From an uncultured archaeon (GTDB lineage Archaea > Asgardarchaeota > Thorarchaeia > Thorarchaeales > CAZPUN01): a stretch of DNA of 32,000 nucleotides. The position numbers were made by a program, and so were the translations under genes. Positions 11,167 to 27,356 of the stretch are shown here, piece by piece. Positions within the stretch are counted from its first letter, which is position 1. Every line of letters begins with the position of its first letter. The stretch lies in NCBI GenBank assembly GCA_964589775.1, contig CAZPUN010000013.1, forward strand, positions 38,515 through 70,514, read 5' to 3'. The notes below the pieces were generated by a model that was given only the letters and a program-made list of their open reading frames with translations, did not search any database and was not told the DNA's origin.

Positions 11167-11479
11167 TGGCGGGTAGGCCCGGGGCGTTTGCCGTGCCCTG
11201 TAACCCGTAATCGGCAATAGCGGGGGGCAGTAACCCAATGGAAGGCATACCTCCGCGGTAATGGCCTGCATGTCCCTACGATGATACCCAGTCCCTTGGG
11301 GATACCGTTGGCGCAGCCACTCATGGAGGTGAGTGGCCAAGGCCAGAGGGAGCGAACCTGGCTAGGCCCGGGAGGGAGCAACCTAAGTTCCCGCGGTTAT
11401 CGCTCAGGGGAGCACTGGGTTGAGGAATGGCATGCAATCAGCCATTATCGCGGGGTGTGTCGACCTGCGGGGGCCGCCA
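11167..11479 (+). ncRNA. ffs: Archaeal SRP (7S) RNA
   Basis: Terminal helix TGGCGG/CCGCCA; Alu-domain CCCTGTAACCCG; helix 6 GCCACTCA-TGGAGG-TGAGTGGC; helix 8 AGGCCC-GGGA-GGGAGCA. Confidence 0.93.
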
Positions 11480-11535
11480 CTTAATTATTACACAATAGAA
11501 AACTTGATAAAGTGATTTGAAAAACAAAAATATGC

Positions 11536-11611
11536 GGGCCGATGGTCTAGTGGCTATGATTTCGCGCTTACACCGCGAAGATCGCTGGTTCGAATCCGGC
11601 TCGGCCCACCA
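11536..11611 (+). tRNA. tRNA-Val(TAC), no intron, CCA encoded
   Basis: GGGCCGA/TCGGCCC acceptor; TCGCG-CTTACAC-CGCGA; TTCGAAT T-loop. Confidence 0.96.
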
Positions 11612-11630
11612 TTCTTATCTTTAACTTAGC

Positions 11631-11802
11631 GCTGGGGTATCCAAGCCCGGTATGGAGCCAGCCTGCTAAGTTGGTGACCCTTGTGGTCTCGAGGGTTCGA
11701 AAGTGTATATACACCGATAATCTCGTGAGAGGCGAAGTAGCCCATGAGTACGGTGTACCGGTTGAAAGTGTATATGCACCGAAAATCCCTCCCCCAGCGC
11801 CA
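11631..11802 (+). tRNA. tRNA-Ser(GCT) with 84-nt intron at 59/60 (11702-11785)
   Basis: GCTGGGG/CCCCAGC, CCAGC-CTGCTAA-GTTGG, long variable arm; BHB TTCG-AAA ... CGAA-AAT restores GAGGG-TTCGAAT-CCCTC. Confidence 0.9.
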
Positions 11803-11894
11803 TAAAATGTTCGAAAACGTAGAATTCATAACTGTTTGTGTCGTATTATATATTATATAAAAAAATTTCTTCTACTGAAGGTGAAAGGTACTAT

Positions 11895-12425
11895 ATGTAT
11901 GACGCAATGAGAATTAATAGTGATTTATTCAAAACTGTATTGGAAGAATTAGGCGGAAAAGAAGCAGTTGAAATTGCATCTGTATTAATTAATGTTCCAG
12001 AAACTACTGATGAGGGTATTGCTACAAAAACCGGTTTAAGATTAAATGTAGTACGTAAAGTGCTATATAAATTACATTCAAATAGCTTGGCTTCCTATCG
12101 TCGAATTCGAGATCAATCTACTGGATGGTTTATTTACTTTTGGAAATTAAACCCCGATAGAGCGCAATACTTGATTAATAAAAAGAAAAAAACAGTTCTG
12201 AATTTATTGGAACAAAGATTAGAATATGAAAAAAACAATGTATTTTATGTCTGTAAAAATAATGATACTCCATTATTAACATTTGATGAAGCAATGGAAT
12301 ATTCATTCAAATGTCCACATTGCGATATGCCTCTGATATACTTTGAAAACAAAGCTGCTATTGAATTTCTAGAAAAAAGAATTGACGAGCTCAAGCGAGA
12401 TCTATCAAGATATAATAACCTATAA
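11895..12425 (+). CDS. tfe: Transcription factor E alpha
   Basis: TDEGIA..TGLRLNVVRKVLYKL, GWFIYFW, Zn ribbon C..N...FDEAMEYSFKCPHC; ATG at 11895 after GGTGA. Confidence 0.95.
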   Translation: MYDAMRINSDLFKTVLEELGGKEAVEIASVLINVPETTDEGIATKTGLRLNVVRKVLYKLHSNSLASYRRIRDQSTGWFIYFWKLNPDRAQYLINKKKKTVLNLLEQRLEYEKNNVFYVCKNNDTPLLTFDEAMEYSFKCPHCDMPLIYFENKAAIEFLEKRIDELKRDLSRYNNL

Positions 12426-26777: not shown

Positions 26778-27356
26778 ATGAATGATACACTTGATAATTC
26801 AAAAAATAAAGATGAGAACACAATTCCTGTAGTAACTTTTGATACTCAGGAGTATATTGGCATTGTATCTCCTGAAGAATATTCAAAGATTCTTCAATCT
26901 GGACCATTTGGAACACTAATTCAGGACCAATATGTACTAACTCCAATTGAATGTATGTATTTACTTTTTAAAAATAAGATTTTTTTAATTGATTCAGATG
27001 GATCTCCAATATCAATACACCAGCTTTTGAAAATCATGCTTCCACAAGATAAGGATATATGGACAAAATTTCTTGTATATTTTGATCTGAGGTCAAGAGG
27101 TTACTCTGTAAAGCAAGGTTTTGGACCTGGCATAAGTTTTAGATTATATCCTCGTGGAAGTAGATTGGGTGATGATACTGCAAAAATGTTAATTTACATA
27201 TTAACTGACGGTGACTCTATATCACTTGATGAATTAGAGCGAATAACAAAACTTTCAACAAGTTCAAGAAAAAAATTAATTTTTGCTCTAATTAATCCAC
27301 AAGGTGAAATTACGTACTATAAAGTATCTCAAGTACCACTAAGTGAGGGAAAATAG
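26778..27356 (+). CDS. tRNA splicing endonuclease subunit, probably the structural (beta) subunit
   Basis: LTPIECMYL, FLVYFDLRSRGY, RKKLIFALI..GEITYY; the catalytic Tyr and His positions read GFGPG and DDTA. Confidence 0.8.
   Translation: MNDTLDNSKNKDENTIPVVTFDTQEYIGIVSPEEYSKILQSGPFGTLIQDQYVLTPIECMYLLFKNKIFLIDSDGSPISIHQLLKIMLPQDKDIWTKFLVYFDLRSRGYSVKQGFGPGISFRLYPRGSRLGDDTAKMLIYILTDGDSISLDELERITKLSTSSRKKLIFALINPQGEITYYKVSQVPLSEGK

Follow-up and report, generated by a model that had tools for sequence, protein, structure and literature searches.

A T-loop intron carrying two copies of its own splice-site core in an Asgard archaeal tRNA-Ser(GCU) gene

The window analyzed here, i.e., the whole stretch of 32,000 nucleotides, contains a tRNA-Ser(GCU) gene whose T-loop is interrupted by 84 nt in which the same splice-site core is found twice. 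How can a tRNA gene hold two copies of one splice site and still form one correct splice motif, and how did the second copy arise? A preliminary description of the locus had proposed a "Russian-doll" intron, with splice motifs nested inside one another and perhaps processed stepwise into several small circular RNAs. Having examined the anatomy of the gene, its predicted folds and its orthologue in a sister species, we consider it likely that this is a working tRNA-Ser(GCU) gene, whose BHB intron at position 59/60 grew from about 19 to 84 nt in this lineage. The duplication is supported by our results; the nested reading, and the folding switch that had been suggested together with it, are not supported.

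The tRNA-Ser(GCU) gene and its outer BHB

The host genome is the sole member of its family in the genome collection used. The PAN ATPase encoded in the window had named best matches that were almost all from Asgard archaea, mainly Thorarchaeota, plus Odinarchaeum, Helarchaeota and Baldrarchaeia, and its closest match beyond the sister species was about 70% identical. With the Rfam tRNA model only about 35 tRNA loci were found in the whole genome, many of them 85-112 nt long, and a splice-and-verify pipeline placed BHB introns at D-loop, anticodon-loop, variable-loop and T-loop sites. Examples of interrupted loci lie on contigs C17 (~13867), C23 (115829-115904, minus strand), C43 (24974-25077, minus strand) and C9 (9597-9707). 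The tRNA set of this host is heavily interrupted and under-annotated.

The neighbors of the tRNA-Ser(GCU) gene are an M50 peptidase gene, an archaeal SRP RNA (11167-11479, directly upstream of the two tRNA genes), a tRNA-Val (11536-11611, just upstream of tRNA-Ser), TFE and DUF2110, in an order that is kept in the sister species. The TFE open reading frame was listed from a GTG at 11838 (window 11838-12425), but comparison with public protein records indicated that its start is most likely the ATG at 11895, giving 176 aa.

By hand parsing, the gene (11631-11802, plus strand) encodes a class II tRNA-Ser(GCU), including its CCA. It has an acceptor stem at 11631-11637/11792-11798, an anticodon loop CUGCUAA at 11663-11669, a long variable arm at 11675-11690, a T-stem GAGGG/CCCUC, the discriminator G11799 and CCA at 11800-11802. 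The 5' exon (11631-11701, plus strand) ends with ...UUCGAA at T-loop position 59, and the 3' exon (11786-11802, plus strand) comprises U60, the 3' strands of the T-stem and the acceptor stem, the discriminator and CCA. Between them lies the 84-nt intron (11702-11785, plus strand). When 11702-11785 was removed in silico, ARAGORN called an 88-nt tRNA-Ser(gct) with the T-loop UUCGAAU restored, in agreement with the preliminary description, which had recognized a T-loop intron in a tRNA-Ser gene. From the genomic sequence itself, no tRNA-Ser(GCU) was called at 11631-11802 by ARAGORN (default or intron mode) or by Rfam at its gathering threshold; at E <= 10, Rfam matched the 5' part only, with 23 bits.

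By definition, a BHB has a 4-bp helix with a 3-nt bulge on either side of it, placed where exons and intron meet (PMC5829648), and the outer motif of the tRNA-Ser(GCU) intron agrees with this definition. Its 5' half (11696-11702, plus strand) consists of the helix strand UUCG (11696-11699) and the bulge AAA (11700-11702), and its 3' half (11780-11786, plus strand) of the helix strand CGAA (11780-11783) and the bulge AAU (11784-11786). Even in its strict form the motif is complete, with all four pairs of the helix between the two 3-nt bulges (H=4/4) and helices on both sides (h=5, h'=12).

In the MFE fold the structure is hBHBh', i.e., the T-stem GAGGG/CCCUC, the helix UUCG/CGAA, the bulges AAA and AAU, and a 12-bp helix; the centroid fold has the BHB too. 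The strands of the 12-bp helix h' are palindrome 1, GTGTATATACAC (11703-11714, plus strand; 5' strand), and palindrome 2, GTGTATATGCAC (11768-11779, plus strand; 3' strand). These 12-nt cores are palindromes or nearly so, and are 92% complementary to each other, forming 12 pairs including one G·U. The earlier proposal that the palindromic cores pair over 12 bp, completing the outer BHB, was borne out by the MFE fold, with a pair probability of ~0.99 for h'. For the flanking helices h (5 bp) and h' the values were 0.97-1.0. The fold had z = -4.5 for the pre-tRNA and -5.3 for the T-arm alone, and none of 200 shuffles was as stable.

The splicing enzyme cuts after the second nucleotide of a bulge. 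By this rule cuts are predicted at 11701/11702 and 11785/11786, and they would give back the T-loop UUCGAAU. A gene for an EndA-family splicing endonuclease is present in the window about 15 kb from tRNA-Ser (catalytic-domain match PF01974 at 27057-27317, plus strand); it is one of two in the genome, with open frames of 199 and 203 aa, the second being on contig C23. There is a single gene for the RtcB ligase (PF01139), on contig C21. Asgard EndA is an (αβ)2 enzyme with an L1 broad-specificity loop (PMC5829648). Two EndA genes of ~200 aa are as expected for an enzyme of this type, which would then have the L1 broad specificity reported in that study. We infer that the intron is spliced in vivo.

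The duplicated core and the short intron of the sister species

The direct repeat reported at 11694-11722 and 11760-11787 was present. A repeat search returned 24 nt of it (11699-11722 / 11764-11787, 92% identity, spacing 65), and by eye it covered the full coordinates (28/29 nt), with one 1-nt gap. The duplicated block is a 29-nt exon-intron-exon core that runs from G52 to C61. Copy 1 (11694-11722, plus strand) comprises the last two T-stem bases, the T-loop UUCGAA, a mini-intron-like unit, AGTGTATATACACCGATAA, and TC. Copy 2 (11760-11787, plus strand) comprises a pseudo-exon, GGTT-GAA, with one C missing, the mini-intron unit AGTGTATATGCACCGAAAA, and the real U60 and C61. Between the two lies a 37-nt filler (11723-11759, plus strand), so that the window intron reads, in order, copy 1 unit, TC, filler, GGTT-GAA pseudo-exon and copy 2.

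Because the core and TTCGAA are both palindromes, the repeat is partly forced by pairing. However, the non-pairing flanks are also alike (GGTT-GAAA in copy 2 and CGATAATC in copy 1); this likeness is not forced, and it therefore argues for a true duplication. The copies differ at 3/29 positions, i.e., an A/G change that keeps the pairing in the 12-bp helix, A11718U in copy 1, and the loss of one C from copy 2. All three differences leave the productive BHB untouched.

Together with C11722, the filler folded into two hairpins, the first made of CUCGUG/CAUGAG, interrupted by an AGA bulge, and of GGC/GCC, the second being small; the pairs of the filler hairpin had probabilities of at least 0.93. 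Folded alone, the filler was mildly more stable than expected by chance (z = -1.9, with 8 of 200 shuffles equally stable). A search for its source gave no match in viral contigs, and the best match elsewhere in the genome was 13 nt at E=0.6. Nor did the filler match the 37 nt upstream or the 37 nt downstream (p = 0.65-0.99), which rules out a plain tandem duplication of contiguous DNA. Its only feature that stood out was a 7-nt complement to copy 1, CGGTGTA (p=0.036). A K-turn in the filler hairpin was rejected on inspection, the pairs after the bulge being Watson-Crick.

With the downstream TFE gene as anchor, the locus was found in a sister species represented by six assemblies (L026-28 and L037-39), one of them an NCBI MAG. 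The sister species shares its gene order with the window, with 77-82% DNA identity over 5.5 kb, and its tRNA-Ser exons are identical to those of the window. Unchanged exons in the only tRNA-Ser(GCU) gene found in the genome, in which AGY codons are used, point to purifying selection. At the same site the sister has an intron that is a single 19-nt unit, i.e., A, the 12-nt hairpin GUGUAUUUACAC (GCAC in one strain) and CGAAAA; its single copy of the core matches copy 1, and the filler is missing. The alignment of the two species contains one clean 65-nt indel. The comparison of orthologous tRNA-Ser genes, which the preliminary description had itself proposed, has thus shown the duplication directly. 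When folded, the short pre-tRNA of the sister formed this BHB as well, its h' being a hairpin of 4 bp.

The A/G difference between the window copies (11712 / 11777) falls at a hairpin position that is polymorphic among strains of the sister species (L026/L027 vs L028), and pairing is kept either way, as a U-A or a U·G pair. The cluster of SRP RNA, tRNA-Val and tRNA-Ser and the TFE promoter region were mostly identical between species (window 11167-11900 vs L026 1830-2500). The flanking protein genes had 77-82% DNA identity, and the TFE protein was 98% identical.

Among orthologues at the level of the order, T-loop introns of 29-30 nt were found at 8 of 17 loci, 37/38 introns at nine, and none at three; the T-loop introns lacked an internal repeat. 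Elsewhere in the host, 59/60 introns occur in tRNA-Ala(GGC) (C17 ~13867; 22 nt) and in tRNA-Arg(GCG) (C23:115829-115904, minus strand; 17 nt). The window intron had been described as far longer than an 18-nt 59/60 intron of tRNA-Arg; it is far longer, although the tRNA-Arg(GCG) intron has 17 nt and lies on a different contig. Both introns share the A...CGAAAA layout with the Ser mini-intron. Since the palindromic T-loop core TTCGAA determines what these ends must be, the shared layout alone is no evidence of common descent. From these sequences, a short T-loop intron appears to be the normal state. TFE homologues at 54-61% identity had other neighbors, with no tRNA-Ser upstream.

Intron position in tRNA-Ser(GCU) varied widely across the order. 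One of the order-level orthologues (L015) had an additional 19-nt D-arm intron, and in another (L010) the insert was at a different T-loop position and gave no clean BHB in the splicing pipeline.

The reason that two copies can still make one splice site lies in symmetry. The "palindrome" of the window is the h' hairpin that the ancestral mini-intron already had; once present twice, this hairpin can pair with its own copy, so that the duplication is tolerated. The BHB is two-fold symmetric, and the T-loop core TTCGAA is also a palindrome; it follows that the unit UUCG-AAA-hairpin-CGAA-AAU, when duplicated, pairs with its copy in antiparallel orientation, and that the resulting duplex has one BHB at either end. 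Of these two, the outer BHB is predicted to join the true exons. In the folding calculations, the productive central helix was equally probable in the short and the long pre-tRNA (0.76-0.85). The center of the palindrome is AUAU in both window copies and AUUU in the sister. When both copies were modeled with AUUU, the probability of the long-range helix, and with it that of the productive BHB, fell to ~0.5; hence the AUAU center matters, whether it is older than the duplication or was fixed later.

A freshly duplicated state was also modeled. It contained four BHBs with perfect central helices: besides the productive and the inner BHB, each copy had a local one, and the two local BHBs would mis-splice the tRNA. 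With A11718U and the loss of the C, both local BHBs drop from 4/4 to 3/4 central pairs, and two pairs of the inner site become G·U. This pattern fits drift or selection against unproductive cuts, although another reading of the C deletion and A11718U is that they compensate each other, so that the inner site retains its four pairs.

In the history that we favor, the starting point would be an ancestral mini-intron (A, a 4-bp hairpin and CGAAAA) in a textbook hBHBh' motif. An event at the DNA level would then have added 65 nt, i.e., a second copy of the 29-nt core (G52 to C61) and the 37-nt filler; as a guess, this might have been break repair or a template switch at hairpin-forming DNA. The near-palindromic hairpins of both copies would now pair, replacing the 4-bp hairpin with a 12-bp helix of intermolecular style, and exactly one productive BHB would be rebuilt, with copy 1 supplying its 5' half and copy 2 its 3' half. 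The (αβ)2 endonuclease would cut this BHB at 11701|11702 and 11785|11786, and RtcB would join the exons, probably circularizing the 84-nt intron.

Inner sites and alternative histories

The BHB at the other end of the duplex is an inner BHB-like site (site 2). Its first half, CGAU + AAU (11715-11721, plus strand), mirrors the outer 3' half, and its second half, GUUG + AAA (11761-11767, plus strand), mirrors the outer 5' half with one C deleted (H=4 with two G·U, h=12, h'=1). A mirror image of this kind arises whenever a two-fold-symmetric motif is duplicated, and at site 2 it has since become relaxed.

Is this inner site nevertheless used? If processing were nested, EndA would also cut at 11720|11721 and 11766|11767, and perhaps at a third site, yielding a 46-nt circle with the filler hairpin and a two-piece 38-nt RNA, possibly functional. 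We regard this as unlikely. The second BHB-like site of the preliminary description (CGAT-AAT / GTTG-AAA) does exist, and appears in the MFE fold with a 4-bp central helix, the 12-bp helix flanking it and the 3-nt bulges in register, its four pairs being kept by A11718U in copy 1 together with the lost C of copy 2. However, two of those pairs are G·U, the helix forms with a probability of ~0.5, and beyond it lies a three-way junction in place of an inner helix. The third site was a matter of letters only: in the fold, CUCGUG pairs with CAUGAG over 6 bp and AGA is left as the sole bulge; the site had h=1 and h'=3, and the pair that would expose its 3' bulge (U11723-A11750) had a probability of 0.0. 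Among dinucleotide shuffles of the intron, 62% contained at least one site of the quality of sites 2 and 3, and 32% at least two. Judged by these models, the third site is a coincidence at chance level.

The inner unit has no strict hBHBh' of its own at site 2 or site 3, and removal of 11721-11766 (46 nt) left 38 nt, compared with the attested form of 19 nt. Because the ancestral intron is not regenerated in this way, the nesting records no insertion of one intron into another. What survives of the Russian-doll intron is that it records a duplication, as the 19-nt copy in the sister demonstrates; the nesting itself does not survive. The filler hairpin is mildly stabler than shuffles, which counts in favor of nested processing, but the filler and the inner site are missing in the sister, so that no conserved function is visible, and cuts internal to the intron are irrelevant to tRNA maturation. 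Nested, stepwise splicing into several circles is not supported, and the cuts discussed are predicted ones. The proposed switch between local and long-range folding fared no better: the long-range fold was favored by 9.4 kcal/mol over two forced local hairpins, and its helix had a probability of ~0.99.

The direction of the 65-nt change is not proven by the alignment, because the same pattern would result if a precise deletion between the direct repeats had occurred on the sister's side. The long form would then be ancestral for the genus, and the sister would have lost 65 nt by recombination between the 29-nt direct repeats, which are good substrates for precise deletion. We think this improbable. 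The single copy in the sister is compatible with a chimera of copy 1 and copy 2, and with 3/29 positions already different the event was not very recent; against this, the order-level T-loop introns are all 29-30 nt without internal repeat, the other 59/60 introns of the host have 17-22 nt, and the long form was found only in the species of the window. Even if the sister did lose the segment, the long form must originally derive from the short form, having first arisen by duplication.

It is quite improbable, in our estimate, that the duplication and filler are the footprint of a general mode of tRNA intron growth in Asgard archaea (e.g., staggered-break repair at splice-site DNA, with capture of the filler), combined with a double BHB cut at both ends that releases a 46-nt circle with the filler hairpin. 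Were this combination true, the locus would show both the growth of a BHB intron and the birth of small circular RNAs.

Growth of the intron in a working gene, which we prefer, has also to be weighed against loss of function. That the insertion created a pseudogene, with AGY codons decoded by a second gene absent from the assembly, is very unlikely. No second tRNA-Ser(GCU) candidate was found in the genome, which, being 96.75% complete, could lack one, and gene finders miss the locus under study; AGY codons are in use in the genes neighboring it. On the other hand, its exons are identical to those of the sister despite ~80% overall DNA identity, its BHB is perfect, with a probability equal to that in the short form, and none of the differences between the copies falls within the productive motif.

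That the 65 nt are an assembly artefact, e.g., mis-joined strain variants with the A or the G allele, is extremely unlikely, since, although this is a metagenome assembly in which the copies differ at an A/G position that is polymorphic in the sister, a mis-join would not create a unique, self-folding filler of 37 nt, a 1-nt deletion and a substitution, a perfect BHB is unlikely by accident, and another assembly record of the locus (ENA contig L036, built with MEGAHIT and of a different length, possibly from the same sample) is identical over 3.5 kb including the intron. Exact-pattern scans of metagenome and genome contigs, based on the exons and on the intron, revealed no further alleles.

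Significance and relation to known systems

A review in 2014 called for "snapshots" of the events by which tRNA introns arrive or change (PMC4033280). The tRNA-Ser(GCU) locus is a clean snapshot of intron growth, rather than of arrival: two species have identical exons, one with a 19-nt intron and the other with the same intron plus a clean 65-nt addition that contains a second splice-site core. It also shows why the BHB system tolerates duplication, i.e., the motif is symmetric, its hairpin is near-palindromic, and one productive site is rebuilt. With one productive BHB, its mirror image and two local BHBs that have been weakened, the pre-tRNA is a natural substrate for studying the site choice of the Asgard endonuclease. 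On the practical side, the only tRNA-Ser(GCU) found in this host is invisible to standard tRNA finders.

Models of intron gain are one point of comparison. These include the intron transposition/gain model of Fujishima et al. 2010 (as cited in PMC4033280 and PMC4090602) and the mobile-element model of Sugahara et al. 2012 (PMC3293823). As in these models, an intron changed at the DNA level between close relatives, and the direct repeats overlap the T-arm, as at integration sites. Unlike in these models, an existing intron grew and no new site was occupied, the added sequence occurs only once in the genome, there is neither an integrase nor a mobile element in the vicinity, gene order is kept, and a 29-nt repeat surrounds only 37 nt. 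A transposed intron family of the Thermoproteales type was rejected, since a BLAST search of the genome with the T-arm plus intron, and another with the filler, returned only the locus itself. The scar of an att site was likewise rejected, with only 37 nt between the repeats, no integrase, gene order as in the sister, and no match of the filler in viral contigs.

Long or nested introns are another. [quoted passage not shown] An identity as a box C/D guide was rejected, no C (RUGAUGA) or D (CUGA) box being seen in 11702-11785 and no Rfam snoRNA match being obtained at E <= 10. Twintrons, i.e., introns within introns, occur in Euglena plastids, as noted in PMC11782384, and the splice motifs of the tRNA-Ser(GCU) intron are nested in a superficially similar manner. 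Unlike in twintrons, the inner motifs are not strict, and inner removal does not leave the ancestral outer intron (38 nt remain, against 19 nt in the ancestor), so that this identity too was rejected. The nesting of motifs is a consequence of the symmetry of the duplication.

In split and permuted tRNAs, pairing of leader and trailer forms the BHB (Nanoarchaeum; Cyanidioschyzon; PMC4090602, PMC3978253). The tRNA-Ser(GCU) intron resembles them in that its splice motif is built from two distant complementary segments and not from a local hairpin. It differs in that a single transcript carries both segments, one being a copy of the other, with no trans-splicing or permutation.

Non-canonical archaeal BHB introns, including those at T-loop position 59/60, are known from Thermoproteales, other TACK archaea and Asgard archaea (PMC4090602, PMC4033280; bioRxiv 10.64898/2026.10.13.758758), and have been linked to broad-specificity endonucleases (PMC4090602, PMC4033280, PMC5829648). 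A 2026 preprint reports heavy, repeated intron gain in Asgard tRNA genes (bioRxiv 10.64898/2026.10.13.758758); this census makes no mention of intron growth by internal duplication, and the literature searched yielded no account of a BHB formed anew by pairing between duplicates of an intron's own hairpin. The tRNA-Ser(GCU) intron is like the other non-canonical introns in having a strict hBHBh' at a non-canonical site, in an intron-rich genome with two EndA subunits and RtcB, and in a gene that finders miss. It is unlike them in its length, 84 nt compared with 17-30 nt in every orthologue and paralogue examined, in an h' helix formed by two copies of the ancestral hairpin, and in the pseudo-copy of exon bases that it carries within the intron.
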